64,000 nucleotides of DNA from Alphaproteobacteria bacterium. Its GTDB lineage: Bacteria; Pseudomonadota; Alphaproteobacteria; SP197. The notes below the pieces were generated by a model that was given only the letters and a program-made list of their open reading frames with translations, did no database searches and was not told where the DNA came from. Made by a program: the position numbers and the translations under genes. The DNA lies in the NCBI GenBank assembly GCA_964291265.2, contig OZ219747.1:3616001-3680000 (forward strand). The letters are read 5' to 3'. Shown one piece after another: positions 46,437-64,000 of the stretch. Numbering within the stretch: position 1 is the stretch's first letter; each line of letters starts with the position of its first letter.

Positions 46437-46775
46437 ATGACCGACCGCCGCCAGCACGCCGTCATGGCGACGGACGCCGAGTGGGAACGCATCACCCGGG
46501 CGGCCCGGGCGGCCGGCATGGAACTCTCCCGCTTCATCGTGCAGCGCACCCTGATGCCGGATGCCCTGCCGATGGAGGTGCTGCGGCGGGCCGTGCGGGA
46601 GGTGCTCGTCATGGCCCGCCTGGAAGAGCGGCGCCTGTGCGAGGCCGGCGCCGGGGAGGCCTGGGAGGAGGCCGGCGAGGCGGTCGACGCCTGGCTGGAG
46701 AGCGAGGGCGTCCTGGCGCGCCTGACCGATCCGGGAGCGGCCAACCGCTGGAAGGCGGCGGGAGACGGGGGATGA
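46437..46775 (+). CDS. Ribbon-helix-helix (MobC/NikA-like) protein 1
   Basis: HAVMATDAEWERITRAARAAGMELSRFIVQR. Confidence 0.65.
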   Translation: MTDRRQHAVMATDAEWERITRAARAAGMELSRFIVQRTLMPDALPMEVLRRAVREVLVMARLEERRLCEAGAGEAWEEAGEAVDAWLESEGVLARLTDPGAANRWKAAGDGG

Positions 46776-47065
46776 CGCGCCAGCTGAAGCGGCAGCGTTC
46801 CGTTCACTGTCCGCCCGAGGAACAGGAGATGATCCGCGGGAAGGCGAAGGCCGCCGACAAGACGGTGTCGGGCTACCTGCTCGACCTTGCCCGCAAGGAC
46901 GATCCGCAGATCCATCCCCTGGTGCTGTCGCCGGAGGATCAGCGTGAGTTCCTCGAGGGCACGAGGACCCTGCAGGAGGTGGCAAGCGCCCTGCGCCGGG
47001 AGCTTCCCGGCACGGAGGGTCTGACCCTCCTTGCGGCGGTGGCGGTGATGAGTCGATGGCGATGA
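46772..47065 (+). CDS. Ribbon-helix-helix (MobC/NikA-like) protein 2
   Basis: RSVHCPPEEQEMIRGKAKAADKTVSGYLLDLA; ATGA overlap. Confidence 0.65.
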   Translation: MTRQLKRQRSVHCPPEEQEMIRGKAKAADKTVSGYLLDLARKDDPQIHPLVLSPEDQREFLEGTRTLQEVASALRRELPGTEGLTLLAAVAVMSRWR

Positions 47066-47538
47066 GGCCGCGGCGGCGTCGCCGGAAGAAGCCGCCGTCG
47101 AAACACCTGACGGTCTCGGCGACGGACGACGAGTGGGAGATGGTGAGGTCGCAAGCGGCAGGCCGCGGGCTCTCGATCGCCCGCTATCTCGTGGGCCTGG
47201 CGGCCCGGGACGGGGCCGAGGGCGACAAGGGACCGCCGCTGGTGCTGGCCGGGGTTCAGCAGAGGGAGCTCCTGGAGCTCCACCGGGAGATCCTCTCGCT
47301 GCTGCAGGGCGATGAGGACACATCGTCGCTGATGGCCGACATCCAGGCGCGGGTCGCGGTGATGTTCAACCTGTGGGCGAAGGACATGATCGCCCGCGGC
47401 CGGGAAGATGATCTCCGGGCCGAGCTGGCCTCGATCCTCGGCGAGGAGCAGGCGGCCGCCGTCATGGCCTCCGTCAGGAGAACGACGACGGAGCGCCCGC
47501 GGGCCGCGGACACGGTCCAGCCGGATCTCTTTTCCTGA
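47062..47538 (+). CDS. Ribbon-helix-helix (MobC/NikA-like) protein 3
   Basis: LTVSATDDEWEMVRSQAAGRGLSIARYLVGLA; ATGA overlap. Confidence 0.65.
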   Translation: MRPRRRRRKKPPSKHLTVSATDDEWEMVRSQAAGRGLSIARYLVGLAARDGAEGDKGPPLVLAGVQQRELLELHREILSLLQGDEDTSSLMADIQARVAVMFNLWAKDMIARGREDDLRAELASILGEEQAAAVMASVRRTTTERPRAADTVQPDLFS

Positions 47539-47575
47539 ACGGCAGGGGATCATCGGGGGAGCATGAACCTCTTGC

Positions 47576-50500
47576 CTACATCGACAGGCCGCGGGACCGT
47601 CCACGCCTGCGGGCCTCGATCTCGCGGAGCGTCTCGGCCATGCGCCTCTCCCGCGCCGTCTCGTCATCCCAGGGGGCGCGTACGCATCCGCGCGTGAAGA
47701 GGGAGCGCATATCCTGGCGGATCGTCGAACCGGCTGCAGGCGCTCCCTGCATTCCCCAGGAGCGGACCACGCGGAGCGTCACCCCGTCTCCCACCACGTC
47801 GTTGACGCCGGGCTCGACGGCCTCGACGATCGCCTCGACCTGCGCGGTGTCGCCCTCGATTGGGGGCTGGACCGGGCCGGCATGCCGCACCATGGTCCAG
47901 CGTATCCTGTCGTCCGGAAGGACCCTCTCCTCGCAGGCGAAGGGGAAGGCGTCGTTGCGGACGGGATACTGCCGGTCGCGTTCCCGCTGGCGCAGCGCCT
48001 CGTCGGGCCACAGGAGGCGTCGGCAGGTGACGTTGCCGGCAAGGGGGCGGAGCGTCTCGGCGTGGAGACTGCGGGTCTCTGTGCCGCCGACGGGACGAAT
48101 GCGCAGGCGATCGATGACGTCGGGGCCGGTGACGTGGCTGACCATCTCGACAACCGCGTCGTGGCGGCCCTCTGCGTCGATCCAGCTGAGCCGGTCGCCG
48201 CGGAGCAGGGGCTCGGTCCCGTCCCAGCGGACACTGCGGGAGACGTCGAACGGCGCCTCCCGCAGCTGCCGCATGGCGGTGCGGACCTCGAGGAGGTGGC
48301 GGGTCCGGCCTGCCTCCTCGCGCACCGCGTCGTCCTGGGCCAGGCGTTCCGGGAGTGCCGCCACGATGTAGGCGAGGCGCCGGGGCGAAGCGCCCGCGGC
48401 GCGGATGTGGGCCTCCTGGTTCAGCGACCCTGCCTCCACGGCCTCCAGCAGCATCCGGGCACGGCGGCGCCAGGCGTCGGACAGCGCTGCGCTTCCCTGG
48501 AGGCCGGGTTGGAGAGCCAGGGCCTCCGCGACGAGCTCATGAACCCGCTGGCGTTCGCCGTCCCAGCCATCGAGCGTCTCGCGCCACGCGCCGACGGTGG
48601 TCCGGTCCTCCGCGGTGAGGCGCGGATCGTCCCGGAGCTGCCGCAGCACCTCGCGCAGGGGCGCCATGTGGGGCGAATCGAGGGGATGGCGATGATGGTC
48701 CCGCACCTCCCCATTGATGGCGTCTGCCCGGCGCACGAGAGCCCGCAGGCTGTCGCCGAGGAGCATGGCGTCGATGCGCTCGGCCTCGGTCTTGACGACA
48801 TCCCCGGCGCCCGCCATGTCGCGGGCCGGCAGGCCGTCGGCCTTCCACGCGCCGGGAAGCGCGCGACCTTCGGCCAGGAGCGCCGCGGCGTCGCGGCGCC
48901 AAAGGGGATCGCCCGGTTCCGCCGCCTCGCCCAGGCGGCCGGCGCGGCGGCGCCAGTTCGCGAGAACATCGAGGGCGGCGTCCGTCGCCATCCAGGAGGG
49001 CGCCGAGGCAAGACGCTGCCGGAAGGCATCGGGGGATGTTCCGAGGGCGCGAAGCTGCGCGGTGCGCTCGCCTTCGGGGATGGCGTCCATCGCCGCACCG
49101 GCTTCCTCTGCCGCCGCCGGGGCCGCGGCGCGCCAGGCCGCACGGTCGTCGCCTGAGCCGCCGAACGTGGGCCGGTTCGTCTCGGCCTCCGCGAGGCGGG
49201 CGAGGGCTTTGGCGAGACGGGCGCGGTCACGGCGCCAGCGCCTGTCGTCATCGAGCCGGCGGGTGAACGCGCGCACAGTTCCATCCGCCGGCGCGCCGTC
49301 GGCCACCGCCCCGGGGACCTCCTCGAGAAGGCCGGGCCAGTCAGCGAGGTCGCATGGGAGCCGCCCGGCGGCCTCGGCGCGGTCCTCGATCTCCTTCACC
49401 CGCTGCAGAAGTGCGGCGCGGTCCAGGGCTCTGAAGGTCGTCTCGATGGTTGCCGCCGCCGCAACGAGGTCGCGGCGGGCGTCGGCGAGGGCATCGAGGT
49501 GGCGGGCCTTCAGCGACCTGTCGGCCAACATCGCCCGGGCAGCCGTCAGCATTGCCGCCGCCTCGGTGCGCCAGGCCCGGGCATCGGGATGGTCCGCATC
49601 GGGATGGTCCGCCGCCGCAGGCGCCGGCCCCGTCTTCGCCAGGACCCGGGCCCTGGCGACGGTGGCCTCGGTCTCGCGGCGTTCCGCCTTCCACCTGCCG
49701 TCGGCGTCCCGCCAGTCGGCCATCAGGTCGCGCGTTGCCTGCGGCGTGCCCTCGTGTTCGGCGAGATCCTCCAGGGCCGCCAGGAGCCGGGGGTAGTCCG
49801 CCGCATCGAGGGGATGCACGCCGCCTTCCTCATGGGCCCGGTTGACGGACCGGGTGAAGGCGGCGAACGCCTGGCATGCGGCCGTCAACCGGGCTGCCTC
49901 GAGCTGCCTGATGACGCTGTCGACGGCGTCCCGGGCGCCCGCCATGTCGTCCGTGCGAGAGGGATGGGCGGCCCATTCCTCCACAAGCCTCCTGCCCTCC
50001 TCGATCAGGGCGTAAGCCCGTTCGACATCCTCCTGCGCGATGGTCGGACCCTCGCCGCCCTCGCGCAGCACCTCGGCGGCCCGCCCCGACCAGTCGTCGA
50101 GGCCGGCGAGGGCCGCGTCGGTGGCGCGCCACAGGGGCACGGCGCCGACCAGGGAAGCGAAGTCCTGTGCCGTCATGCCGCAGGCTGCGAGGTGGGCTCT
50201 GCGCTCGTGGTCGGCGAGGGCGACCACGGTCTCGAGGGCGCCGTCCAGGGCTTCGGCCCCGTTGCGCCACGCTCGGCGATCCGGCGCGTCGCCGCGGATG
50301 TCCGCGTAGCGGGGCCTTGAGCGTTCGAGGTCCCTCAGCAGGCCGACGGTCTCCGCCACGCGGCGGCGGTCGCGGCGCCAGCGCCCGTCGTCTGCCAGCC
50401 AGCGTTCGAGATGACGGCCCACCGGATCGCCGGGTGCGGCGGCATCGACGGCACGGCGGATCTCGCCCAGCGTGCCGAACCATTCCGCGAGATCGAGGGG

Positions 50501-53500
50501 CAGCCGGTCCTCGAGGCGGGCCCGGCCAGAGATCCCGCAGACCCGCCACAGCAGCGTGGCGCGGTCAAGCGCCTCCAGGCTCTCGACGACCTCCCGGCCC
50601 GCCGTCACGATCCCGTCGCGCTCCTCCAGCATGGCGGCGATGTACGGACCATGAGGACCGTCCGTGTCAAGGAGCGAACGCATGTGCCGCAGGTGAGCCT
50701 CCGCGTCGCGCCGCCACCGCGTGACATCGGCGTCCCCGGGATCGACCCCGCCCGCGCCATCGAGCGGCACGTGGTCTGCGAACCATGCCGCCAGCATGCC
50801 GGCTCTCTGACGCGCCGACCTGAAGTCGTCGACGAGAGCGGTCTCCGCGGCATGGCGCGCCTGCCAGGCGTCCACCGCACGGCGTTCCTCCGCCGTCAGC
50901 CCCGTGGACCGCGCCAGGGCCGCGCCGCGGCGGGAGATGTCCGCATGGTCCGTCAGGAGGGAGGCCGGCACGGCCTTCTCCCGCGACCGTTCGACCAAGG
51001 CCCGCCAGTCGCGGGCAAAGCGCGCGGCATCGTCCTTCAGCCGCACCTTCTCCACACCGGCAAGCGCGACCCCGAGGCGCCGACGGTCACCCTCCGGGAG
51101 TGCCGGCGCCTCCTCTCCGGCGAGCCGCCGCCGGGCGCTGTCGACAAGGGCCGTTCCCGCATCGCGCCACGTCCGCCAGGCCGGGCCGTCTCCTGCAGGG
51201 TGGCCTGTGGACCGGGCCGCCCATGCCAGTTCCGGCCAGCGCCGCGGCTGGTCCTGCAGGCCGGAGATGAGCTCCCGCACCTGGCGCTCCGCAGCACGGG
51301 ACGCTTCATGGGCTCCAAGGCGCTCGTCGACGAAGGCGCGCATCTCGGCCGGCAGGTCCTCGACCGCCGCGAAGGCGGCAAGGCGCGCCATCACCCCGGC
51401 ATAGGCCGGAACCGACGAGGGAGGCGAACCCGCCGCCTCCCGTTCCACCTCTTCCCAGGCAGCGACGACGGCGGCCCACGCCTCGGGATCGACGATCGGG
51501 CCGTCGAGATCCTCGCCCAGGGCCTCGAGCGCGGCGTCGGGCACGTCGGGCGAGGTCTCGAGACACTCGATCAGCGCCTCGCGGTCGTCCGTCAACAGGG
51601 TGAACCCCTGCGAGGCACGGCTCACCTCGACGTAGAACATCTCCCGGTTCGCCATGTGTCCGGCATCGAGGACGGCGATGACCTTCTTCGCCGTCTTCCC
51701 CTGGGCGCCGTGGACCGTGGAACTCCAGGCATGGTCGAGATGGCGCAGGTGGGGATCGCTGCGGGCCAGGGAGTACTCCGTGCCGTCGTCCGCCAGCAGC
51801 CGCACCCGCTCGGGCCCGATCGACAGCACGCGGGCTTCCTCGCCGTTGACCAGGGCCGGCGTGCGCCGCCGGGCCTTGCGGTTGCGCGTCCAGCGCACCC
51901 GGTCGCCGGCCCGGATCTCGATCTCCACGGTCTCGTGCACCCCGAGGTTGCGGGCGGCGTTGCCCGAGGGCCGGAAACGCCGTTCCCGGCCGTCGGCATG
52001 GTCGAGGACGACCCAGCCGTCGCCGACCCCGGTGATGGTGCAGACATCGTCGGCACGGCAACCATAGGCGTCGCGGTGGAAGACCACCGTGTCCCCCGGT
52101 TCGTAGTTGGCGAGAACCGAGGCCTCGATGCGGGTGTAGCGCCGGTCGACGAGGCGCCGGATGGTGAGCGTCCCTCCCGTCAGCACGCCTTCCTGCGCCA
52201 GGCCCTCGCGGATGGCCGCGTTGATCTCCCGGCGCACGGCATGGGTCGGGGCGAGGACGGCGCAGGCCTCCCGGTCCTCCGCCCCGAGGGCGAGCCACGC
52301 CCGGGCCGCTTCTGCCCCGAGATCCTCCACCCGGTGTTCCGTCACCCGGTTGGCGAGCCGCGTCATGGCCTCGCCGGCTTCGCCCTCGCGGGCCCGCACC
52401 ACCGCCTCCTTCAGGTCCGCATCCTCCTGGCGCAGCACCTCGTCCATCACCGCCGTCGCCATGCCGCGCTTCTGCATGAGGGCAAAGGGCTGGCCGGCGT
52501 CCACCGCCTTCAGCTGCGCCGTGTCGCCGACGAGCACCACGCGAGCGATACCAAGGGTTCCGGCCAGGGCGAGCAGCCTCTCCATCGCCACCGTGCCGAT
52601 CATCGAGGCCTCGTCCACCACCAGCACCCCGCCATCCATGTCCTCGCGGGCCCGCTCCAGGCGGTCGGGGTCCGAGAGATCGCCGTAGCGCACCAGGAAC
52701 CACTGAAGGGTGCGGGTCGAGACCCCGGCTCCCTTCTCCAGCACCCGCGCCGCGGCGGCCGAGGGAGCAAGGGCAATGAGCGGGCGCCCCTCCACGAGGC
52801 CCGCCACCTCCTTCAGCATCGTCGTCTTGCCGCTGCCGGCCCGACCCTGCACGCCCACCACCACATCGCCTGACCCCAGGACGTGACGCACCGCGTTCGC
52901 CTGCCCGGCGGTCAGCCTCGTCGCCGCAAGGCGGGCCGTCACCGTCTCTTCCGGGACCAGGGCGACGGCCAACGTCCGGCCCTGCCTCACCGCCTCCAGG
53001 ATGCGCCGTTCCGCCTTGACCGCCCGGTCGGTGACGAAGGAACGGTCCGAGCCCCGCAGGACCGTCTCCAGCAACTCCCCTTCCGCGACGAGGCGCTCGA
53101 TCGCCGCGTCGATCTCCTCCAGCCGGTAGCGGCCCGGCGCATGGCCCAGGACCAGTGCCCGGATGTCGCGAGCCGGGATCACCGTGCGTCTCTCCTCGAC
53201 GTGAGCCACCGCCCGCGCCACCGCCTCGAGGACGCCCGTCTCGGGCTCGGCGATGCGTTCCGCCGGAGCCGCGGGGCGGAACCGGCGCCGCCGCACCACG
53301 GTCTCCACCACCGGTTCGAGGTGCGGCGCCGCAGGCGACCGCTGCCGCCGCCGGCGTTCGTTCTTCGTCAGCCCCGCTTCCGGGTCCACCGGCAGCGCCA
53401 TCTCCCGGCCCGTCTCCGGTTCGACCGGCCTCGGCGGCCTGAGCGCCGCCTCGTCGCGCACAAGGCCCAGGGCGCGCGCCCGGGCGCGCCACTGTGGCAC

Positions 53501-54343
53501 AAGCTCGGCAAGGCCCGCCTCGACCTTGCGACGGCGCGTGTGGAGCGTCGCCTTCTGCGTCGCCTCACGCGTCGCCGGAAGCCCGTGCTTCTCGAGGTAG
53601 GCAAGGATCTCCCGGCGGCGCCCGGAGAAGGCGTCCAGGAACTCCCCGTCGTAGCCCGCCAGCTCGAAGCCCGGAACCGGGCCGATCATCCGCGGCGTCA
53701 CCGCGAAACCCTGGGCCACCAGGCGCGACGCCAGTTCGTTGCGGTAGTGCGCCCCGATCAGCTTCTCGCTGCGCCGCAAGGACGTCGGCTCGATGCTCTT
53801 CCAGGCGCCGTCGGACGAGCGCGTCATGTTCGCCAGAACGCAGTGCGTGTGAAGCTGGGGATCGAGATCACGGTTTGTGAGATGGCGAAAGCCCGCCACC
53901 ACCATGCCGTCCGCCTTCACCCGCGGCCGGCGCTTCGTCGCCGGATCCCAGCCCCGGGTCTGCAAGAGGTCCCGCTCGATCCAGTCCAGGGTCGCCCGCA
54001 CCGCCTCGTCGTGCGCCCGGATGACACGCACGTCCCCCATCACCAGCGCCTCCAGAGACACCGACTTCGGCGCCGAGAACGTGATGTCCCAGCCCGGACG
54101 GTGCCGGCGCTCTCCCTCGACGATCCTCCCCAGACGGATGTCCGTCTTCGGCACCTTGCCCTGCAGCACCGACTCGAAGCGCGACGGCACAACGTGGCCC
54201 CTCAGCCCAAGGTCGCCCGCCGCACGGCCATGCCAGAAGCTCGCCTTGCGATGCTCGGGATCGTTGCGGGCGTAGTACCCATCCTGCTCGTAGTACGAAA
54301 CCGCGGTCGCCGAGGACGCAAGCTCGTGAACCGTCGCCACCAT
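47576..54343 (-). CDS. MOBF (TrwC/TraI-like) relaxase-helicase with long repetitive C-terminal extension, 2255 aa
   Basis: SYYEQDGYY, WDITFSAPKSVS, FRHLTNRDLDPQLHTH, QGRAGSGKTT, VVDEASM, LVGDTAQL, TVHGAQGKT; basic tail RRRGRSRGLSM. Confidence 0.93.
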   Translation of the reverse strand: MVATVHELASSATAVSYYEQDGYYARNDPEHRKASFWHGRAAGDLGLRGHVVPSRFESVLQGKVPKTDIRLGRIVEGERRHRPGWDITFSAPKSVSLEALVMGDVRVIRAHDEAVRATLDWIERDLLQTRGWDPATKRRPRVKADGMVVAGFRHLTNRDLDPQLHTHCVLANMTRSSDGAWKSIEPTSLRRSEKLIGAHYRNELASRLVAQGFAVTPRMIGPVPGFELAGYDGEFLDAFSGRRREILAYLEKHGLPATREATQKATLHTRRRKVEAGLAELVPQWRARARALGLVRDEAALRPPRPVEPETGREMALPVDPEAGLTKNERRRRQRSPAAPHLEPVVETVVRRRRFRPAAPAERIAEPETGVLEAVARAVAHVEERRTVIPARDIRALVLGHAPGRYRLEEIDAAIERLVAEGELLETVLRGSDRSFVTDRAVKAERRILEAVRQGRTLAVALVPEETVTARLAATRLTAGQANAVRHVLGSGDVVVGVQGRAGSGKTTMLKEVAGLVEGRPLIALAPSAAAARVLEKGAGVSTRTLQWFLVRYGDLSDPDRLERAREDMDGGVLVVDEASMIGTVAMERLLALAGTLGIARVVLVGDTAQLKAVDAGQPFALMQKRGMATAVMDEVLRQEDADLKEAVVRAREGEAGEAMTRLANRVTEHRVEDLGAEAARAWLALGAEDREACAVLAPTHAVRREINAAIREGLAQEGVLTGGTLTIRRLVDRRYTRIEASVLANYEPGDTVVFHRDAYGCRADDVCTITGVGDGWVVLDHADGRERRFRPSGNAARNLGVHETVEIEIRAGDRVRWTRNRKARRRTPALVNGEEARVLSIGPERVRLLADDGTEYSLARSDPHLRHLDHAWSSTVHGAQGKTAKKVIAVLDAGHMANREMFYVEVSRASQGFTLLTDDREALIECLETSPDVPDAALEALGEDLDGPIVDPEAWAAVVAAWEEVEREAAGSPPSSVPAYAGVMARLAAFAAVEDLPAEMRAFVDERLGAHEASRAAERQVRELISGLQDQPRRWPELAWAARSTGHPAGDGPAWRTWRDAGTALVDSARRRLAGEEAPALPEGDRRRLGVALAGVEKVRLKDDAARFARDWRALVERSREKAVPASLLTDHADISRRGAALARSTGLTAEERRAVDAWQARHAAETALVDDFRSARQRAGMLAAWFADHVPLDGAGGVDPGDADVTRWRRDAEAHLRHMRSLLDTDGPHGPYIAAMLEERDGIVTAGREVVESLEALDRATLLWRVCGISGRARLEDRLPLDLAEWFGTLGEIRRAVDAAAPGDPVGRHLERWLADDGRWRRDRRRVAETVGLLRDLERSRPRYADIRGDAPDRRAWRNGAEALDGALETVVALADHERRAHLAACGMTAQDFASLVGAVPLWRATDAALAGLDDWSGRAAEVLREGGEGPTIAQEDVERAYALIEEGRRLVEEWAAHPSRTDDMAGARDAVDSVIRQLEAARLTAACQAFAAFTRSVNRAHEEGGVHPLDAADYPRLLAALEDLAEHEGTPQATRDLMADWRDADGRWKAERRETEATVARARVLAKTGPAPAAADHPDADHPDARAWRTEAAAMLTAARAMLADRSLKARHLDALADARRDLVAAAATIETTFRALDRAALLQRVKEIEDRAEAAGRLPCDLADWPGLLEEVPGAVADGAPADGTVRAFTRRLDDDRRWRRDRARLAKALARLAEAETNRPTFGGSGDDRAAWRAAAPAAAEEAGAAMDAIPEGERTAQLRALGTSPDAFRQRLASAPSWMATDAALDVLANWRRRAGRLGEAAEPGDPLWRRDAAALLAEGRALPGAWKADGLPARDMAGAGDVVKTEAERIDAMLLGDSLRALVRRADAINGEVRDHHRHPLDSPHMAPLREVLRQLRDDPRLTAEDRTTVGAWRETLDGWDGERQRVHELVAEALALQPGLQGSAALSDAWRRRARMLLEAVEAGSLNQEAHIRAAGASPRRLAYIVAALPERLAQDDAVREEAGRTRHLLEVRTAMRQLREAPFDVSRSVRWDGTEPLLRGDRLSWIDAEGRHDAVVEMVSHVTGPDVIDRLRIRPVGGTETRSLHAETLRPLAGNVTCRRLLWPDEALRQRERDRQYPVRNDAFPFACEERVLPDDRIRWTMVRHAGPVQPPIEGDTAQVEAIVEAVEPGVNDVVGDGVTLRVVRSWGMQGAPAAGSTIRQDMRSLFTRGCVRAPWDDETARERRMAETLREIEARRRGRSRGLSM

Positions 54344-54349
54344 GGAGCG

Positions 54350-55147
54350 TCACTCCGGCGTCACGATCTCCAGCGACAGGTCCGGCGGCGGCCAGGGCGG
54401 CAACTCCGCCGCCGGCAGCATGGCCGTGACCGCAGGAGGAGCCTCAAGATAGCGCACCACGAAGTCGGTCATGAGGCCGAAGAAGAATGCGCAGCCGACG
54501 AGAAGGGGAAGCGCCACGCCGGTAAGCCAGAAATCGCGCCGGGAGCGCTTGAGCGCCTGCTCGACATGACCGAACCGACGGCCGAGTGCGGCCGTCCCAC
54601 TGGCAATGTCGCCCAGCGTCCGCGCCTCGCCGGCCTGCGCCTCCTTCCTCTCCGCCATGGCGTCGTGCGTCTCCTTGCGCAGCGTCTCGACGGAAGTCGA
54701 CAGCGCCGGGACGGCATCCGCGGCAGCGGCGAGCCGACGGTCATGGTCCGCGAGCGTGTCGGCGATCCTGTTCAGCGTGTCGTTCAGGGCGGCAAGGTCG
54801 GCGTGAACGGCGGCTGCCGACTTCACGTTGGCCTCGTCGAGCCTCACCGCAAGACCGGCGACGGCGGCAAGGACGCTTCGCACCGCCTTCATCAGCTCCG
54901 CGTGTCCCTCCGCACCGTTGCTGTCTTGCTCCTTGAGCCGCTCCGCAAGGGAACTGACAGCATCTACCAGGGCCTTCAGGACTTTGAGTTGCTGCTCCAT
55001 CGACTTCTGCAACGCCGCACCCTGCTCGCTGACGAGGGACTGGCACGCGTCCACGGCGGCCTGGATTGTCTCCAGCGTCTCACGGTCCGCCGACGCCAGG
55101 CGCTGTGCCGGTTCAAGCGGGCGAAGAAGGGTCTTTCCTCGTGTCAT
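54350..55147 (-). CDS. Coiled-coil protein with C-terminal TM helix (possible mobilization accessory protein)
   Basis: RBS GGGGAGA before MTRGKTLL; heptad-rich; hydrophobic WLTGVALPLLVGCAFFFGL; ends 6 bp upstream of the relaxase start. Confidence 0.6.
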   Translation of the reverse strand: MTRGKTLLRPLEPAQRLASADRETLETIQAAVDACQSLVSEQGAALQKSMEQQLKVLKALVDAVSSLAERLKEQDSNGAEGHAELMKAVRSVLAAVAGLAVRLDEANVKSAAAVHADLAALNDTLNRIADTLADHDRRLAAAADAVPALSTSVETLRKETHDAMAERKEAQAGEARTLGDIASGTAALGRRFGHVEQALKRSRRDFWLTGVALPLLVGCAFFFGLMTDFVVRYLEAPPAVTAMLPAAELPPWPPPDLSLEIVTPE

Positions 55148-55445: not shown

Positions 55446-55700
55446 TCACTCCTCGAACCCGAACGATTCTTCATCCAGCTTGAGGTCTCGGGCGTTGGCC
55501 TTGACGGTCTCGACCACATCGTCGGGATATCCTTCGTCAGGACCGTTGCCTTCGAGTTCGACGGTGAGGTTCAGGGATGACCCTCTCGGCCTTGTGAGTT
55601 CGGCCAACAACCCGTCCATGATGCGTGCAACCTCCAGACCCGCACGGTCGGGATCGATTTCGATGGTGTCAAAGAACCGCGTCGGTTGCATCCGTCTCAC
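55446..55700 (-). pseudogene. C-terminal fragment of a DUF499-type ATPase (defence-associated)
   Basis: PTRFF..IEIDPDRAG.EVARI...L...L.VELE...GYPDDVVETVKANARDLK...FGFEE. Confidence 0.6.
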
Positions 55701-55758
55701 CGGGCCAGGCACTTGTCCTCGCAGTCGCCCACAGGCTCCACGGTGACCTCTCCAAAGT

Positions 55759-58204
55759 CAGACGTCCTGACCTCGGCTATGAATTTGTCCAATCAGTTTG
55801 ATGCTTCTGGGCCGAGTTTGGGTGGGTTGTCTGGCATGTCGTAGATCATGCGCAGGTCGGTTCCTGGGAAGATCGTGCGTGTCTGGTTGAGTTCATCGAG
55901 CAGTCCGGCGATGTCGGCGTCGCGCGCGTTGCTGGCGGTGCCGAGGAAGCGCACCCGCAGGACGCGGTTTTCCTGATCGGGGATGATGTCGGCGTCCGAC
56001 TGGAACAGTTCGGCGAGAGGGCGTCGCGGGCGCTGCTTTGCGCCCTGGGCCTGGGCGACGGCGGCCATCATCCGGGTTTCGGCGCGGTAGGCGATCATGC
56101 GAACGATGTCGAGCAGCAGCCTCTCGCTGGAGGGCAGGGCGTCGAGCCTGTCGTTCTCGTCGAGCTCGGCCACGGTGACATGTTTCGGGATTTCTGAACG
56201 CCGGACCTTGAGCGCCTCGTGCTCGGCGTCGAGCGTCACGATCTTGTCCTGCAGCGTTGCGGCGGCCGTGATGGCGGTGTCGGACGGGGCGCCCTTGAGC
56301 AGGTCGGCGACGCGGTTGCGCAGTGTGCCGAGCTTCTGGCGCAGCTGGCGGATGCGGCGGTCGCAGCGGCGCCAGTGCGGATGGACGACGCGCGCTTCGG
56401 GGTCCTGCTCGACAAGGCCGTGCACGGCCAGCGCGTCGAGGCCGAACTCCTGGCGCATGGACTTGAAGAAGTTCTCCTGGGACCAGCGCGAGAACAGCGC
56501 GCCGGCGACCCGCTCCATGGGCGTGTGCATGTCCGTGGTGACAAGCGGCACCTGCCGGCCGCTGTCCAGAAGACGCCGGATCTGGCGCACCTGCGGTCCG
56601 CCGGACAGCGTGATCCGTCTCTGTGCGAGCCGCACCTCGGCGGTGCGGACGCCACCTGGTGAGTGGAGCGGCGCCCGGACCGTGCGGAACTCCCCCTCCG
56701 GCCAGGGACCGCCCCGGAACCCCTTGTGCCAGGTGATCACCGCCACCCCGCGCCGGGCGAGGCGGGCGAACAGCGCCGGGCTCCAGCCCTCGCGGTCGAA
56801 CACCAGCGTCAGCCCCGGCGCGACCGCCTCTCCCCTGGCGAGGTTCGGCGCCTCCGGCCCCGGCAGGCCGAGCCGCTCCAGCGCGGGCAGGATGTCGTGC
56901 TCCAGCGCGTGCGTCATGGTCGGGTCGAGGTCCTTGTGCAGGCACAGGAGCGGCCGGCCGCCGAGCGCGTTGACCCAATAGCCTGTCGAGGCCGGCAGAC
57001 AGAGCTTCTGACGTGACACGAAGTGCTTCGGCAGGCGACCCTTGCGGCCGGTATACACCTTCACGTGCCCGTCCACCGACAGTGTCGCGCAGACATCCGG
57101 CGCCTCCGCGATCCAGTCCTTCGCCAGCGCGTCCTGTCAGTCCCGGACCCGCTGCGGGTCGCTCGCCAGCGCCCTGATCTTGCGCCGCAGCGTCTTGACC
57201 TCCGGGCAGCGGTCGAGCCCCAGGACCGCACCCCGTTCCCCGGGCGCCTCGTGGCGCAGCGCCTCGGGGTTGCGGATCCGGGCCATGAACAGGAAGGCGA
57301 GCATGAGAAGCACGCTCGTCAGCCCATAGTACCCTTTCGGCAGCGACAGGAACCTGTCCGCGTGCTCCAGGAGACCCTCCTTCAGCAGCGCCGGCAGCGC
57401 CGCCAGGACGCCGCCGCCGGCGACCGCCGAGAGTGGCTCGTCGAAGCGCGGCGGCGCTTCGCTCATGGCCCCCGTCGAGGCCGCGACGCGCCCGGCGCTG
57501 TCGCGCGCGCCGCGCCCCATCGGCGCGACCCTGTCGCGACGGTCCCGCTCGCCGCGGCCGAGAAGATCGTCCGGGCATCGCGTGGCCTCGTCGACTTGCG
57601 CCGCCTGCGGCCGCTCTCCGCCGCCGATGAAGCCGTTGCTGAGGTTGTAGTACGCCGTCGATCTCGCGATCCCCAGTTCCCGGGCCAGTGCCGCGGCGTT
57701 CATGCCCTCGGCCAGGAGACGGTTCGCCGCGGCTGCCGTCTCGCCTGTGATCACGCTGAGACCACGGCCCTTGCGTGGCTCGTAGAAGCTCGCTTCGCCC
57801 TCGTCCCGGAGCTTCCTCACCGCCCGCTGCACGGTCGCGCGGCTCACGTCGAAGGCCGCCTGCAGGTCTCCTTGAGGAACGCCGTGCCTGGCGAACCTGG
57901 CGATCCGCAGCAGCATGGCCGGCCGGTCGCCCTCGTCGTGGCAGTCGAAGGGCTCCATGTTCGAGAAGTAGACGGTCTGTCCGTCGAGGTCGGCAAGGGA
58001 GAAGCACGAGGTTCCGATCTGGACGGCTTCGGGAGGGTGCATTGCGAGCGTGTTCATGGCCTGGACTGCTCCAATATAGGCGTCATGTTATATTGGATCA
58101 CCCCACGGCTATGTTGTCAAGCAAAAAACTGGGAAACCCGTTCATTGTGTTGGAAAAAAAAGGGCCGGACTGATCAAGTCAACTCACTGAGGTCAGGACG
58201 TCTG
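55759..58204 (-). mobile_element. Unclassified (ISNCY-like) insertion sequence, 2446 bp, inserted in an IS4 relic
   Basis: Perfect 16-bp IR CAGACGTCCTGACCTC; 5-bp DR AAAGT at 55754-55758 and 58205-58209. Confidence 0.88.
55793..58057 (-). pseudogene. Putative DDE transposase with N-terminal HTH domains and one in-frame TGA at 57137-57139
   Basis: Two track ORFs lie in the same frame: GLDRCPEVKTLRRK..RVRD*QDALAKDW..SVDGHVKVY, LVFDREGWS, RWSQENFFK. Confidence 0.8.
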
Positions 58205-58543
58205 AAAGTCCCCAGAGAACAGACGAGGAGCTTGTCGGGATAGTCCCTCTCAAGGGTGTCGGCGCCGAAGGCATGAGGCCTTGGTGCAGGCAGGTCGACG
58301 TTGATTGACGAAGCAAGATCAGGCAGGACCGCACGCACTGAGGCCAGTCGCAGGCCGCCCGTCGCGTTGCGCCACCCCTCGCGCTCGCACAATCCCCGCG
58401 CCAAGAACGAACGCGTGCTGCCCTCGGCAATCGACGCGGCCTTCAGTCAATCTCCCGTCGTCGCTGACAGGTGTCGAGAGTCTATCCTTGGGGATCACTA
58501 TGTATGTCGTCATGAACGGAAAGTTAAGCATCCAGGTTGACAG
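58205..58543 (-). pseudogene. DUF4338-IS4 left-end and N-terminal relic (continues at about 55710-55758)
   Basis: LARGLCEREGWRNA..LASVRAVLPDLA..TLERDYPDKLL matches the N-terminus of 40010-42349. Confidence 0.85.
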
Positions 58544-58765
58544 AGGCAACTCCGGTCGAAATGACGGTATGGCGTTTCGACCCGTAACAGACAAGATGCG
58601 CAACGGTCCTATGAACAATCCCGATGAAAACAACGGCCAATTAGCGATCGACTATTTCAGCACCAACCGCCTCGACTTCCACGGCGTGCTTGCCCAGTAC
58701 TCTCTCCTTTTCAGCAACATAGAGGACGAGTTGTGCCGTGCGTCGCGGGATCGAGTGTATACCCC

Positions 58766-59854
58766 TCAAGAATCCCTGCTACTCCGCTGTTGGGGCTGAC
58801 AATTCGCCTGGTCGATCCTCATCGAAAGATTCGAAAGCAGCTTTTCACCAGCTGCTCCCGTGGGTTGTGCCGAGACGTCATTGCCGCAAGGATTAAAACA
58901 AAGACGACTTTGAGATTCACGTTCGCGCCAGCGGGATACAAATTTTTTCTTGACACGACTTCTAAAGCAAAGCATAGCGGCGGTAAGCAAAAGCACAAAG
59001 GGAACAAAAAGCGCAGCACCAACTTCCGTCTTCATGAAAGCTGACATTACCGCAAGATAAACAACCGATAGAGGCAGGGCGCAAATTATGCCTACACTCC
59101 ATTCCAGCCCTTCCCATTTCCTTTCAACATAGTTATCTATCTCTTCACCGATTCTAGTAACTCTTGCTCTCTCAATTTTATCTCTTTCAGCCAACCATTT
59201 CCTTTGTGAAGCATTCCCGCACTGATCGCAAGCAAGATGTCCATTTTGACCAACAAACCAAACCTTCGTTGGCTCCTTTGACCAAAGCCAATTTCCACAC
59301 CCAGTGCATCGACCCTTTTGTTCTCGTGCCTGCCTAACGATTTCTGGCGACTTCATTGCCTCCCATATTCTTTGCGCGATGCGAATCGGGCTGTCGTCAC
59401 GGCTGCCGTCACCCGCACGGAGGTTGCAGTCGGAGCAGAGCGCCTGGCAGTTTTCCCAACCGTCCCGGCCGCCTTTGCTTCTCGGTACGATATGATCGAC
59501 ATGGATCGAGACGGCCGGCAGCGCCAGTAGGTTGCGTCCGCATCCTTTTCCCGTCGGGTCCTTCTGCGGGTCGCCGCACTTGCCGTTCTGTGCGACGATG
59601 CAATGCAACCAGTGACGCCGATAGTCGCTCTCGTCCCGAACCCGTCTTGACCGGTTACACCACCGTTCTTTTGCTTGCTCCGGTCCTTCCGGTCCCCACT
59701 GACCCGTGGCTGTCCCCTTGCGGATTGTCTTTGCAATTTCGAGGATCTTCTGATGTTCGGCGCAGCAAGTTTCGGTGCGATTCTTCCACGGCTCCGCCGG
59801 GCGACACACTGCGCAGTGTTTATCGGGAAGCGACGCTTGCTGCATCTTCTCCAC
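58766..59854 (-). CDS. HNH endonuclease with extra Cys motifs and two C-terminal TM helices
   Basis: HVDHIVPRSKGGRDGWENCQALCSDCN; CAVC, CTGC, CDQC; hydrophobic WSVGIICALPLSVVYLAVM and ALFVPFVLLLTAAMLCF; RBS AGGAG. Confidence 0.8.
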   Translation of the reverse strand: MEKMQQASLPDKHCAVCRPAEPWKNRTETCCAEHQKILEIAKTIRKGTATGQWGPEGPEQAKERWCNRSRRVRDESDYRRHWLHCIVAQNGKCGDPQKDPTGKGCGRNLLALPAVSIHVDHIVPRSKGGRDGWENCQALCSDCNLRAGDGSRDDSPIRIAQRIWEAMKSPEIVRQAREQKGRCTGCGNWLWSKEPTKVWFVGQNGHLACDQCGNASQRKWLAERDKIERARVTRIGEEIDNYVERKWEGLEWSVGIICALPLSVVYLAVMSAFMKTEVGAALFVPFVLLLTAAMLCFRSRVKKKFVSRWRERESQSRLCFNPCGNDVSAQPTGAAGEKLLSNLSMRIDQANCQPQQRSSRDS

Positions 59855-59914
59855 TACTCCTGTCGCTTGATGGATATCCTGACGTCACGATGCATAATTT
59901 GAATCCGAGTTATG

Positions 59915-60688
59915 CTATTGAGAACCAGGCGGCGGCCAGATCAAAGGCATTCCGGTATCGGGATCGAAGGCGTCATCGAGCTTTGGCTCCCTACCGAGTT
60001 TGGCGCAGGCACCATGAAGTTGGGATTGTTTGAGACCGCGTACGCCAGAAAGAATTGCTCCAGACAATTTTGTTCTGCATAGTCTAACACGATCTAGGCA
60101 GGCACTGGGCGGAAACCAAACGTTTTGTAATTTTGCTCCTTGCAAGTCGATTATAGCGTCGTGTTCTTTTTCGAGCTCTCGGCCTTCGATGGAACGTTTG
60201 CTAATACCTACGATGATAGTTTGAATGTCTTCGCGAGGACGGCGTGATCTTTTCTTTTCAGATGCGGATGGCGGACAACGGACAAATGCAGCCAAAATGC
60301 GAAAGACAAGAGTATGGAATCCCTTAGGATCAAACTTAGCCAGTCGAAGAAGACTATCAATTGCTCCCATGCGTACTGCATGAATGTCGCTACCGATCAA
60401 TTGCACTGCACTTTGAAAGCGCTCAATTCTTAGAGATTGCTGAGTGGTTGCGATCTGTTTTTGTGCAGCATTCGCTTGATCGCGTGTAGCTTCAGTCTGC
60501 TTCACTGCAACAACGCTTCGCCACATAGCCAATATGATGGCTACCGCTGCAGCGATGACGAGACTGATGTTCCGGATAGTTTCGCTAGGCGCGCCATGTA
60601 GCCATGACCAATAGCACACCATTGAGCCGGCACCGGCCACTACTACCACAAATACTACTATTACCACTATTGACGCCCAAAGTCGCAC
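59915..60688 (-). CDS. Two-TM protein with C-terminal pentapeptide repeats
   Basis: Two N-terminal TM helices; ERFQSAVQLIGS....RMGAI.SL..LA; IDLQGAKLQNV..LSGAILSGVRGLKQSQL; RBS GAGGGG. Confidence 0.8.
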   Translation of the reverse strand: MRLWASIVVIVVFVVVVAGAGSMVCYWSWLHGAPSETIRNISLVIAAAVAIILAMWRSVVAVKQTEATRDQANAAQKQIATTQQSLRIERFQSAVQLIGSDIHAVRMGAIDSLLRLAKFDPKGFHTLVFRILAAFVRCPPSASEKKRSRRPREDIQTIIVGISKRSIEGRELEKEHDAIIDLQGAKLQNVWFPPSACLDRVRLCRTKLSGAILSGVRGLKQSQLHGACAKLGREPKLDDAFDPDTGMPLIWPPPGSQ

Positions 60689-61183
60689 TATTGCCCCTCC
60701 GCTTGCATTTACTGCTCATGCTTTTCAGGCTAGGTGGGGATGGAGCCGTTCGAATGCAAGGGGGCTCTTCCGAGACGATACTGTTACACGACTATGATGT
60801 TAAAGAGTGCGGCATTGTCGGTCATCACCTCCTTGACCGTGCTGTGGGTCTGCATAGCTCCTTGTCCAGGTTCACGCGCCCCTTCTAGGTAACTCTTTCA
60901 GCATGTCTCTTCATACTTGCGGCCCAGCCATGACTTGTTGGAGTTGATGAGGGATTGGCGTTCACGCAGGAGGTGGAGGGCGCAGAGCGCGTGATCGCAT
61001 TTGTCATGGGATAGTCAGCTGGCCCAACGGCTGTGGACCAGGGTTCTGTGGTAACAAGGTATGTGCCGATGTCGCCCATGGCGGTGCGACACCGCTTCGG
61101 ATAGCAGAAGGACAACCGCTTCAGGTTGCTGACGCATCCTTGCTTGAGGCCGAACCACATACCAGTGTTCAGCGTGTCCTAGT

Positions 61184-61567
61184 CCGAAGTTCCAGAACCG
61201 ATCAGACGTATCGTTATGAATGTATTGACGTTTGAAAAAATCGGGTGTGTCGCTACTGGGAACGCTACAGGCGTACGTCGAGGTGGTCCAGGGCCTTTTT
61301 CCGGAGCGTCGTGGGCCACGTGGTGACCTGGAAGAGCCGCAGGTTTCGACCTTCTCCATGGGCCAGGGGGAGAGATTGTTGGCGGGGGCCTCATGCGGTT
61401 GGGGGCTATGTCCACGTACATGGCAACGAATATGGGGCGATGGACGCATGTGTCAACAGAGATTTCCACCGTTACATGGGAACATTTGCATGCTGTCCCT
61501 CTGCCATTTTATCAGCAAGATCAACGACTTGGTGTGGTTGTACCGCTGAAATCGTCCGGAACTTCGA
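61184..61567 (-). mobile_element. 384-bp MITE-like internal-deletion derivative of IS1634
   Basis: IRs CCGAAGTTCC and GGAACTTCGA; 6-bp DR CCTAGT; right-end about 80 bp identical to copies A and B. Confidence 0.9.
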
Positions 61568-61610
61568 CCTAGTCGAACGAAACCGGGTTGGACCGACGCT
61601 GAATGAGGAC

Positions 61611-62768
61611 TCAGGATCCCGCGTTCGATGCCATGATCTGTGTCATGACGTTGCCGACCCGTTCCGCTGCCGCCTCGACATCCTTGTCCGCAACGTGGGC
61701 ATAGCGCAGGGTCATGGAAACCTGCCGGTGACCAAGGAGCCTCGCCACGGTCGGAAGCGGCACACCGTTCAGGACAGCCTGGCTGGCGAAGTTGTGTCGC
61801 AGGTCATGCAGACGCACATCCTCGATGATGGCCCGTTTGCGGAGGGTGAACCACAGCTGCTGGACACTCACAATGGGTATGGTCGGATCGGAGGGTGACG
61901 GAAAGACATGATCACTGCCTGTCCTGGACTGACGAGCGATGATCCCGCGGGCCTTGCTGTTGAGGTAGACTTTCCGTGGTCCGGTTTTGCTGTCCTCAAG
62001 GTCGAGCGTGTCGGCACCGACTTCGGACCACCTGAGGGTGCGGACCTCGCTGCAGCGGCATCCAGTATAGAAGAGCAGGCGAATGATGTCTGCCTGGACT
62101 GATCGTTCCGGACGTTCGGCGACCAGCCGGTCTAGTTCGGCATGCAGGCGACGGGCCTCGTCCCGGGACAGGAACCGGTTGAACCGGCGTTGCGGGTTCC
62201 GGCGCATTCCGCTTGCCGGATTGGTCTCGAGATGACCATGAACCACCGCGTGATTGAGAATCTGGCGCAACACATCGAGAACCCGGTTGGCGCCGCCTGG
62301 TGCCGACATGCTGTAGCGGTCGAACCAGTCGATCACGTCCGTTCGTCGGATCCGATCCAGCGGAATGTCGCCAAACGCCGGCAGGAGTTGGCTCGCGAGT
62401 GTGTAGTCTATGCTGCGCCGGGTTGAAGGCTTGAGACGATCGAAGCACTCGGAGCGCCAGATACGTGAGACAAAATCGCCGAAAAGAGGTACGGGAACCG
62501 AGGGAATGTCCGGCAGCGGTACCGTGTCGTCGGACTGAATGGTGAGACACCGGGAGCGCGCCTCATCGACAGACATGCGTATCACGGGACCCAGCGTCCG
62601 GCGTTTCAAGGAACCGTGCCGGTTGTTCAGAACAACGAACGACTTGTGACCGGAAGACCGCACCCTGACGCCAAGGCCCGTGATCCGTGTGTCCCATACG
62701 GTATACTCGTCGGGCATCGTCGCAAGGCGCGCAATGGCGCGATCACTCAACCGCATCTTTCGCTTCAT
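61611..62768 (-). CDS. Tyrosine integrase with N-terminal arm-binding domain
   Basis: WDTRITGLGVRV, YTGCRCSE, DSKTG, RLHDLRHNFAS, LLGH, TLRYAH. Confidence 0.93.
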   Translation of the reverse strand: MKRKMRLSDRAIARLATMPDEYTVWDTRITGLGVRVRSSGHKSFVVLNNRHGSLKRRTLGPVIRMSVDEARSRCLTIQSDDTVPLPDIPSVPVPLFGDFVSRIWRSECFDRLKPSTRRSIDYTLASQLLPAFGDIPLDRIRRTDVIDWFDRYSMSAPGGANRVLDVLRQILNHAVVHGHLETNPASGMRRNPQRRFNRFLSRDEARRLHAELDRLVAERPERSVQADIIRLLFYTGCRCSEVRTLRWSEVGADTLDLEDSKTGPRKVYLNSKARGIIARQSRTGSDHVFPSPSDPTIPIVSVQQLWFTLRKRAIIEDVRLHDLRHNFASQAVLNGVPLPTVARLLGHRQVSMTLRYAHVADKDVEAAAERVGNVMTQIMASNAGS

Positions 62769-63901
62769 GCCTCGACCCTCCCGCTCAGGGCCGAAACAAG
62801 GGACTCGGCGGCCTCGTGAAGCGTGCCATCGGCAAGATGCGTGTACTTGAGCGTGGTCGCTGGATCAGTGTGGCCCAAGAGCCTGCCTATGGTGGGGATC
62901 GTCTCGCCATGAGCGAGTGCTATCGAGGCGTACGTGTGACGCAAGTCATGGCAGCGAACATCCGCGATCCCCGCTTTCGAGCGCACATTGAGCCAGAAGC
63001 TACTGAGTGCACCCCGCGTCAGGTGGCGTTCCCCACGGGGAGACGGGAACATCCAGCGGCCCCTTCGGGGCAGTTCGTCCAGGATCCGGCGTGCCGCTGA
63101 TGACAGCCAGACCGTGCGCGGGCCCGTCTTGCTGTCCGGCAAGTAGAGCTTGCCCTCACGGTAGTCCGACCACCGGAGACCGAGAATCTCGCTCCGGCGG
63201 CATCCGGTGAGAAGCAGCAACCGCACGATCGCGACCAACAGGGGGCGTTCTTCGCGCTTGTCGTCGAGAACCCGGCTCAAGCGCCTGATCTCGTCGTGGC
63301 TAAGGAACCTCTCGCGATGGCGCCGGCGGTAGCGCTTGATGCCGGTGCACGGATTGGATCCCTCGGGGCGATAGCCGTAGACCTCGGCCTGTCTCATGAT
63401 GACGGAAAGAACCGGCGCCGAACGGTCCGCGGCAACCGGCGTGGCATGAAGTGAAGCAAACCAGCGCTGAACGTCGCGGCGCGTGATATCTTCTATAGTA
63501 CGCCCCTTGAAACACGGCAGGATCTGTTTCCTGAGGTAGCCGAGATTGACCTCCAGGGTGCTTGGCTTCCAGTGCCTCCGGTATCGCCTGAAGACCTCGT
63601 CTGCGACATCCTCGAACAGGATGGGGGCGGTTTCGACAGACAAGGTTCCATCAGTCGTGGAGCCTGACACCAAAAGGGATGTCGCGCGGTCCCGGGCGCA
63701 TTCCAGGGGCATGGTTCCGGCGTCGCCTATGGCGTGCCAGACCCTCTTGCCGTCGACCTGGCTGTGAAGGAAGTATCGCTTGCGGCCTGAGGGGAGGACA
63801 CGTACACCGAAACCTTGGATGACGGTATCCCGAACGTCGAAGGTCTTCTTCTCCGGTTTGAGGGTATCGACCCGTCGTTGCGTGAGGCGTCTCTTCGGCA
63901 T
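62765..63901 (-). CDS. Tyrosine integrase with N-terminal arm-binding domain
   Basis: RDTVIQGFGVRV, LTGCRRSE, DSKTG, RCHDLRHTYAS, LLGH, TLKYTH; ATGA overlap with the downstream integrase. Confidence 0.93.
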   Translation of the reverse strand: MPKRRLTQRRVDTLKPEKKTFDVRDTVIQGFGVRVLPSGRKRYFLHSQVDGKRVWHAIGDAGTMPLECARDRATSLLVSGSTTDGTLSVETAPILFEDVADEVFRRYRRHWKPSTLEVNLGYLRKQILPCFKGRTIEDITRRDVQRWFASLHATPVAADRSAPVLSVIMRQAEVYGYRPEGSNPCTGIKRYRRRHRERFLSHDEIRRLSRVLDDKREERPLLVAIVRLLLLTGCRRSEILGLRWSDYREGKLYLPDSKTGPRTVWLSSAARRILDELPRRGRWMFPSPRGERHLTRGALSSFWLNVRSKAGIADVRCHDLRHTYASIALAHGETIPTIGRLLGHTDPATTLKYTHLADGTLHEAAESLVSALSGRVEA

Positions 63902-64000
63902 GGCATTCTCTCCGGTTCCTGTTGCACCGGGGGTACGGAAACGACATGAATCCGCTTCCCCGGCGAAACTTCGTGAGAGAGAACGCTCTTTATTTCAGTG

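Follow-up and report, generated by a model that had tools for sequence, protein, structure and literature searches.

The DNA analysed here, a 64,000-nucleotide stretch hereafter called the window, corresponds to positions 3,616,001-3,680,000 of contig C2 (OZ219747.1) of an alphaproteobacterial genome, G000. Its distal part harbours an integrative mobilizable element (IME) of ~18 kb (46,055-64,041 in window coordinates), whose right end lies 41 bases beyond the window edge. We found that the core of its attachment (att) site is embedded in a sequence resembling the nic site of MOBF plasmids and that this core differs in almost every copy, a feature absent from a preliminary description of this DNA made from the sequence alone. 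The element is an IME of a real and widespread family, in which att core and origin of transfer (oriT) are likely fused. Of the canonical features of IMEs, it has an integrase, flanking direct repeats, an empty target and its own relaxase, and it harbours none of the VirB4/TraC, coupling-protein or mating-pair formation (MPF) genes expected of integrative and conjugative elements (ICEs). The genome (4.83 Mb, two contigs) is rated 100% complete; it contains a permuted tmRNA, in line with an alphaproteobacterial origin, and repeats make up ~22% of it.

The element is bounded by a 13-bp direct repeat, whose two copies are 17,974 bp apart. The left copy (attL, 46055..46067, + strand) consists of GCG, the core AGGATG (46058-46063) and GTGT (46064-46067), 13 shared letters at the joint. 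The right copy is part of the attR/nic-like site (window-equivalent 64,017-64,041, C2:3680017-3680041), which comprises the hairpin GCACC-ACA-GGTGC, a G, the core AGGATG and GTGT, with a predicted nick after 64,041. The host target is a multi-copy insertion sequence (IS), whose transposase (DruA-like/DDE) is 512 aa long in an empty copy. As the 3' part of the interrupted gene (45441..46067, - strand) is continuous with 64,024-65,033 in eight empty copies, the element inserted into this IS with a 13-bp repeat. The preliminary description was right about the presence of an element, but the limits it gave, 46437 and 64000, need to be moved to 46,055 on the left and to just outside the window on the right. 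It had also proposed to look beyond 64 kb for att repeats or a tRNA, and the direct repeat is there. We rejected a tRNA as the att site, as both ARAGORN tRNA-Arg calls in the window fall in a multi-copy IS that is not the target. These tRNA-Arg(acg) calls (33778-33878 and 43657-43757) lie inside the start of the IS transposase, identical 101-nt calls are found genome-wide, and they are probably false. In several G000 transposases, including those at window 40010-42349 and in the target IS, DDE or Tn5-type domains are fused to a DruA-like domain located at the N-terminus.

The integrase-side ends of the family follow one pattern: hairpin GCACC-N3/4-GGTGC, G, 6-7 nt, GTGT and then host DNA. According to PMC4176350, the nic substrate of R388 shares this hairpin and TGCG, followed by 4 nt, GTCT and the nick; its last four nucleotides (22-25) read GTGT in the majority of MOBF plasmids, and position 20 is free. 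The hairpin, TGCG and GTGT of a MOBF oriT are thus present in our element, but its 4-nt spacer (G17 to G22) is not: among 101 right ends, the spacer is 7 nt long in 62, 6 in 36, 8 in two and 5 in one. Most hairpin loops (92 ends) are of 3 nt, the other nine being of 4 nt. Its closing pair is CG in 96 ends, GC in one and TA in one, with a mismatch in three, and pairing is therefore kept in 98 of the 101; these hairpins include two with compensatory closing pairs and come in two loop lengths. A predicted integration host factor (IHF) site adjoins the hairpin, with at most two mismatches to what we take to be the IHF consensus in 55 of 70 ends, versus two of 70 host flanks. A GAGAG-like motif is found in 69 of the 70 right ends, and inspection by eye of 19 paired elements revealed a CTCTC motif inside both ends, in inverted orientation, an arrangement reminiscent of integrase arm sites. 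In the window copy, the left non-coding end (46068..46436, + strand) harbours the subterminal CTCTC motif, a predicted arm site, and the predicted promoter region of the downstream ribbon-helix-helix (RHH) genes; the right non-coding end up to the window edge (63902..64000, + strand) carries the GAGAG motif, also a predicted arm site, and the start of the IHF-like site.

Unsplit hairpin-nic sites with 4-nt spacers are found downstream of MOBF relaxases in the congeners G015, G020 and G013. G000 itself has two unsplit sites, which read hairpin-TGCG-TCGG-GTGT and are located at C2:3,749,385 (L121:9385-9407) and C2:3,778,752. The former of these two is ~200 bp upstream of a more distant tandem integrase pair, possibly a sister family with a fixed spacer. 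Between 46,437 and 64,000, we found no other MOBF-type hairpin-nic, the sole one being that at 64,017-64,041. The preliminary description had mentioned a candidate nic site without giving coordinates; as it was made from the window only, its candidate cannot have been the 64,017-64,041 site. An oriT upstream of the relaxase gene (55.2-55.4 kb) was considered and rejected, as that region harbours neither a hairpin-nic nor any sequence common to the paralogs.

The likeness to nic might be inherited rather than used by the relaxase, the integrases descending from enzymes that targeted the oriT of a helper, with a working oriT elsewhere. IMEs of the IME_oriT type set a precedent for integrases targeting nic sites (PMC7563843). 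The hairpin is retained in relaxase-free copies, and the spacer exceeds, in length and variability, what the known contacts of TrwC would allow, both in line with such a relic. We nevertheless consider it unlikely, in view of the absence of a second hairpin-nic in the element and of a conserved non-coding stretch upstream of the relaxase, and of the near-complete conservation of hairpin pairing. Moreover, in the 7-nt class the spacer most often begins with T (33 of 62), and across all ends it most often finishes with G (88 of 101), the bases of MOBF positions 18 and 21, respectively.

The elements occupy many different targets (IS, other repeats and ordinary genes), with the core being host sequence at both ends, and the host arms at attL are devoid of hairpins. 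We assembled 28 pairs of ends, comprising 21 of 40 fetched left-side loci, anchored on the first RHH gene and with a fetched right end, and the seven copies of G000 itself. Both ends of 23 of these 28 elements have the same 6-nt core before GTGT; in three elements the cores differ by one base, and two elements are not assigned, whereas wrong pairings of ends show at most one core mismatch in 14 of 754 cases. Three multi-copy targets could be examined in their empty state, with 27, 16 and 4 empty copies, respectively, and they hold the core of the corresponding element. The att pattern can be written (CG)-N5-GGTGT or CGTGT. A purine follows the target GTGT in 77 of 101 cases, versus a background of ~30%, and the left arm of the target appears to be weakly read in a class-specific manner, CG occurring in 7 of 13 elements of the six-nt class (p 0.002) and YG in 10 of 13 of the seven-nt class (p 9e-5), both patterns having been chosen after inspection of the data. 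G000 contains 9-43 perfect target sites per core and 10,319 GGTGT sites in total. The host sides of the L182 and L201 right ends resemble what we take to be the 5' end of a tRNA gene, which would naturally contain GGTGTAG; the spacer of L201 is of 5 nt.

Two explanations for a host-derived core were compared. In the first, the target is picked without core homology, and 5-6 bp of host DNA are copied to both ends by second-strand repair, as in transposon-like duplications. The identity of core and host target wherever testable agrees with this, as does the diversity of the cores (90 distinct 5-nt cores among the 101 right ends). In the second, the target is chosen by homology with the core. Among four independent close pairs (at least 93% identity, different targets; the threshold was set afterwards), three differ by one core base, versus 2.7% of all pairs; pairs sharing a target (L062/L092, E953/E2142 and groups of 5, 2 and 2 elements in G322, a genome from a different family) were excluded. 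No core signal is seen below 93% identity, which speaks for repair duplication. By contrast, two related elements lie in the same site of a repeat, presumably group II intron-like judging from its motifs; of the 43 perfect targets that exist for their core, 29 are in this repeat. Such reuse of one site speaks against duplication, as do the single-base differences between close relatives. In addition, the attL of mismatched ends retains a non-target allele, which is unexpected from a fresh duplication. We therefore regard repair duplication as rather unlikely: the close pairs and the shared repeat agree better with overlap homology, subject to occasional mismatch and drift, than with a random choice of target and its subsequent duplication. 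The single core base that separates the closest relatives suggests homology-checked targeting that drifts. Two further groups of loci (L047/L059/L070 and L054/L062/L092) contain elements 68-83% identical, with one pair at 96%, at the same locus in different genomes, reflecting either repeated use of the site or module exchange in place.

Which enzyme makes the junctions can be approached from the mismatched ends. A joint made by a relaxase at its nick is expected to leave the target core and the target GTGT at attL, and the donor core at the hairpin end. In one G322 element, the hairpin end has the allele of the three empty targets available (3/3), and it is the attL base that differs. Similarly, the hairpin-end allele of one G000 paralog is that of all eight orthologous genes (8/8), and another G322 element has GCCT at attL where the empty targets have GTGT. 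Perfect repeats also flank relaxase-free elements of 3.0, 7.2, 8.7 and 10.4 kb and one of 3.6 kb, and the 3.0-kb element contains only the two integrase genes. Since the polarity of the mismatches opposes a relaxase joint and relaxase-free elements have perfect repeats, these comparisons point to a crossover inside the core and to junctions made by the integrases rather than by the relaxase.

The alternative that the relaxase joins the element to the host at nic-like GGTGT sites, with the integrases serving for excision only or being secondary, has some appeal, as the repeat stops exactly at the predicted nick and as GGTGT followed by a purine is close to the 6+2 core of TrwC, an enzyme that integrates into minimal targets in the laboratory (PMC3264647). 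We deem it improbable, because three elements display the reverse of the expected polarity and relaxase-free elements have perfect ends. It also leaves unaccounted for a core that changes faster than the flanking DNA.

As a short repeat lies inside a nic look-alike, insertion at many sites is likely mediated by the integrases, and the same site is likely the origin of transfer. We thus think it reasonably probable that the two integrases excise and insert the element through a 6-7 bp core inside its MOBF nic-like site, the relaxase nicking the same site for transfer through the type IV secretion system (T4SS) of a helper. In this scheme, Int1 and Int2, probably a XerC/D-like pair assisted by IHF and arm sites, would join the ends into a circle, restoring hairpin-TGCG-core-GTGT beside the RHH operon as a full oriT. 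The relaxase would recognize the hairpin and GTGT, tolerate the five variable nucleotides and pilot one strand through the helper T4SS. In the recipient, the integrases would pick a GGTGT (or CGTGT) site followed by a purine, the preceding 5 nt of which match the core of the circle, and the occasional acceptance of one-base mismatches would make the core, and hence the target, drift. More tentatively, as a possibility that we hold at somewhat less than even, this might define a multi-phylum IME family in which attP and oriT are one, combining a two-subunit integrase, a free 5-bp core, a core-ignoring relaxase and a target that drifts as set by the core.

Several observations weigh against this mechanism. 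The spacer of 6-8 nt contrasts with the 4 nt of R388, most spacer bases of which are contacted by TrwC (PMC4176350), so that nicking is not assured, and the spacer class also follows the relaxase clade, with one exception. The exact core of the window copy is found in none of the empty IS copies, six of which have AGGATG-CTGT and two AGAATG-GTGT; the occupied copy is closest to the haplotype with CTGT, and our interpretation leaves this mismatch with the exact site unexplained. Across 70 ends there is no overall core-distance signal (Mantel rho -0.01, p 0.35), and one pair at 93% identity differs at four of five core positions. The argument from polarity rests on three elements, in each of which a later mutation is possible; a fourth case is ambiguous, as the nearest ortholog has the allele of one end and three others that of the other end, and a fifth is uninformative. 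The mini-elements may be deletions in place. No circle joint was found in the assembled contigs of three runs, contigs being prone to drop rare molecules; an empty-site joint present in those contigs is accounted for by other copies of the IS and was set aside. Finally, G000 lacks a helper: PF03135, PF10412, PF19044, PF03743 and PF04610 gave no matches, although the controls were positive.

Neither VirB4, VirB6, VirB10 nor a full coupling protein was found in G000; TIGR03744 also gave no matches, and neither did its controls. In the proposed scheme a helper would act in trans, with which this absence agrees. Across the 23 genomes of the genus, PF03135 is found in none and PF19044 in two. F-type ICEs are present in two of the 22 congeners, G004 and G015, which are candidate helpers: G004 has an F-type T4SS adjoining TraD and TrwC, and G015 has TraD, TrwC and a TraG P-loop match. 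TraD adjoins TrwC in G015 and G020. We also considered as a helper an island of G000 located at C2 1,033,000-1,085,000 (L101-L103), next to a tRNA-Arg gene. It encodes RepC, a TrwC-helicase-primase, ArdC and type IVb pilins and contains a broken coupling-protein gene. It was rejected, since only a short coupling-protein fragment is present and no VirB domains were detected in the ORFs scanned up to ~1.14 Mb. A related island in G009 (L114-L115) has an intact VirD4.

We scanned 17 open reading frames of the window for protein domains. The two integrase genes overlap by 4 bp on the - strand: int1 (62765..63901) and int2 (61611..62768) code for arm-domain tyrosine recombinases of 378 and 385 residues, respectively, sharing ~36% identity. 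Both have Arm-DNA-bind_3 (which we take to be equivalent to DUF4102) and Phage_integrase domains, with intact catalytic R, K, HxxR, H and Y residues. These residues are at least 90% conserved in 65 Int1 and 61 Int2 proteins collected from the 70 ends, having been chosen by length and a HxLRH filter that pre-selects part of the catalytic motif. A structure prediction of an Int1-Int2 complex scored 0.52, versus 0.01 for the best control, with at least 90% of contacts agreeing between runs and partner pLDDT values of at least 77. In the benchmark, a like score was also reached by 18 of 157 solved pairs and by the two mismatches (of 215) that passed. We regard this prediction as weak and did not use it as evidence, given this non-discriminating score and the fact that tyrosine recombinase oligomers have already been solved.

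The relaxase gene (47576..54343, - strand) codes for a MOBF relaxase-helicase of 2255 aa. It comprises a TrwC domain (residues 13-291, with YY-x4-YY and HxH motifs), an SF1 helicase up to residue ~930 and ~1300 aa of degenerate helical repeats. The assignment is supported by PF08751 (E 1e-76), by matches to TrwC and TraI structures in the PDB and by the alignment of the paired tyrosines, HUH motif and fused helicase. The protein ends with a basic tail, its last letters being RRRGRSRGLSM, and such a tail terminates most full-length relaxases of the family; T4SS substrates often have basic tails. Residues 1000-1400 yield a confident all-helical model (pLDDT 88.7) that has no Foldseek or Atlas match. 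Its best VIA matches were generic three-helix bundles, with Z 11.4 (root-mean-square deviation 4.0, 120 aligned), within the noise for helical proteins. A BID-like secretion signal in this region was considered, and the data speak neither for nor against it. The region encoded at 48500-51400 contains an internal duplication of ~380 aa made of shorter helical units, and full-length relatives range from ~1430 to 2270 aa, versus ~970-1050 aa for the relaxases of G020 and those linked to coupling proteins. The segment at 24.3-24.8 kb, taken in the preliminary description for a decayed relaxase paralog, matches only residues 1354-1548, within the helical repeats, and not the relaxase domain.

Convergent with the relaxase gene are three RHH genes on the + strand, coding for the NikA-like proteins RHH1 (46437..46775), a predicted relaxosome accessory or regulator, RHH2 (46772..47065) and RHH3 (47056..47538), which has a longer C-terminus. 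Taken singly, none of them reaches the Pfam cut-off; at the level of the family, however, 31 of 36 members match the NikA-like signature at E<=0.01, and the family profile matches NikA in the PDB (E 0.0016). Upstream of the relaxase gene, a coiled-coil/transmembrane protein of 265 aa is encoded (54350..55147, - strand, start most likely at 55,147); we consider it accessory, because no such gene is found upstream of the relaxase in two of eight inspected paralogs. The preliminary description had noted this gene as co-oriented with the relaxase gene. Its coupled integrases, giant relaxase and convergent RHH genes were confirmed, as was the absence of T4SS, coupling-protein and rep genes from the window, no such domain occurring among the 17 scanned frames.

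The low GC content noted for the cargo was also borne out, with 0.52 versus 0.73 for the relaxase gene. The cargo genes code for an HNH nuclease with a predicted transmembrane segment (58766..59854) and a membrane protein with a weak pentapeptide match (59915..60688; E 0.003, under the cut-off), both low in GC and on the - strand. A C-terminal remnant of HmaC, from the Hma defence system, is encoded at 55446..55712 (- strand; PADLOC E 1.3e-11), and a paralog of the element carries the full hmaABC set. Approximately 3 kb of the element consist of inserted DNA, namely a multi-copy IS (Transposase_29, split frame, 55758..58205, - strand) and a multi-copy repeat resembling a miniature inverted-repeat transposable element (61180..61575, no strand assigned), related to the IS at 43.4-45.35 kb. 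The cargo of paralogs includes hmaABC, DISARM class I and type II restriction-modification genes. A relaxase-free family member (L187:11220-17201) has non-defence cargo with a 1993-aa Calx-beta protein. Another copy (L193:11226-18392) carries RHH1-3 without relaxase, together with ARPP-1 and NUDIX/NrtR genes, and has no matching left repeat in the fetched stretch.

In G000, we identified nine right ends, seven of which are paired with a left end ~360-530 bp upstream of RHH1, the other two being unpaired within 120 kb. One 52-kb copy (C2:2,108,116-2,160,236), whose relaxase gene is interrupted, encloses a second, complete 13-kb member (2,129,340-2,142,636). The end motif has 82 matches in 13 of 22 congeners, versus 11 for a reversed control in all 23 genomes, and reaches 15-18 per genome; Int1 and the relaxase are each found in 14 of the 22 congeners. 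The int1-int2 tandem with the same end also occurs in records titled Boseongicola, Defluviicoccus, Ruegeria, Amylibacter, Paracoccaceae, Gammaproteobacteria and Acidobacteria. Outside the genus, RHH1-3 with the relaxase were confirmed in G322, which has 13 ends. In a class-wide scan, 14 of 401 genomes matched the motif, single matches being at control level; G322 was the one examined. In metagenomes, two of 31 matches lie beside an integrase gene, and the remainder are chance-like.

The preliminary description had proposed a mobilizable island that borrows a conjugation machinery, and had named two findings that would speak against it: modules that do not co-occur in other genomes, or an adjacent T4SS. 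Neither was observed, as the modules are found together, flanked by paired direct repeats, in seven copies of G000 and 19 of congeners, and no T4SS was found next to the element or elsewhere in the genome. The island is thus supported, and the borrowing of a mating machinery is inferred. That the copies might no longer be mobile, being remnants of an ICE or integrated plasmid that has decayed, would agree with the lack of T4SS, with the interrupted or truncated relaxase genes of several paralogs and with the two right ends devoid of a left partner. This is nevertheless very improbable and is largely refuted for the family by its precise paired ends at many unrelated targets, its intact integrases and the exchange of cargo between backbones 96% identical.

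A 2017 IME review (PMC5704250) lists no relaxase-bearing IME with a MobF relaxase, and none in Proteobacteria; the family described here is of that kind. We found no description of it in the literature, paywalled papers and supplements being outside the scope of the search. Att finders that require alignments over 15 bp (bioRxiv 10.64898/2026.01.13.699239) miss repeats of 10-13 bp that are different in each copy, and the family may have gone unreported for this reason. The fusion of att core and nick site would couple transfer to excision without additional genes. The family constitutes a natural test of the way in which a single asymmetric site is shared by two integrases and of the extent to which a MOBF relaxase tolerates changes of spacer. 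If the proposed mechanism is correct, altering the core would send the integrase pair to new targets, and an int1-int2 unit of 3 kb, directed to its target by 5 bp of core, would amount to a simple retargetable integrase. Each integrated copy would also leave a nickable half-origin facing host DNA, which could mobilize the chromosome.

Among known systems, SE, GInt, Tn554 and RIT elements similarly combine several tyrosine recombinases with a 6-bp spacer, and SEs have the target 6 bp at their intA-proximal end, the polarity of two of our mismatch cases (PMC10214605). As presented there, they are non-mobilizable, need Tfp/Srap-type genes and have a non-matching 6-bp footprint and terminal inverted repeats. 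Our element does not share these hallmarks, being devoid of Tfp/Srap or TnpC genes and of a non-matching footprint, and it has a relaxase. IntSXT integrases have the same N-terminal Arm-DNA-bind_3 domain, but the described members of that subgroup insert beside conserved genes, and the main text of PMC8138268 nowhere uses the word tandem for them. IME_oriT elements of streptococci are closer, as they combine a tyrosine integrase, their own relaxase and an att site that is a nic stem-loop (PMC7563843). According to that source, they are specific for the MobT oriT of their helper and have a single integrase and a Rep_trans relaxase, whereas in our case the nic-like half is part of the element, and the sites of insertion are ordinary chromosomal ones. 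R388 shares with it a TrwC-family relaxase-helicase, RHH accessory proteins such as TrwA and a hairpin with TGCG before the GTNT nick motif (PMC4176350, PMC3264647, PMC4853378). The plasmid has a fixed 4-nt spacer and its own coupling protein and T4SS, whereas the element has a variable 6-8 nt spacer doubling as att core, RHH genes numbering three and a relaxase extended by a helical tail of 1300 aa. Lastly, MTnPi1-3 of Prevotella intermedia differ in that they belong to Bacteroidota, have integrases without significant mutual homology (36% identity here) and an AT-rich, near-symmetric core, with an att consensus, TT(A/G)C-N5-AA, that our pattern does not match; they have no MOBF relaxase, and the accounts cited report no overlap with oriT (PMC4755523, PMC5704250). 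They are nevertheless multi-copy IMEs of low specificity with two tandem tyrosine integrases, their own relaxase and five unspecified att bases, and loss of the second integrase has been linked to failed excision in the same accounts. A tandem-integrase IME with a variable 5-nt core thus has a precedent in MTnPi1-3.

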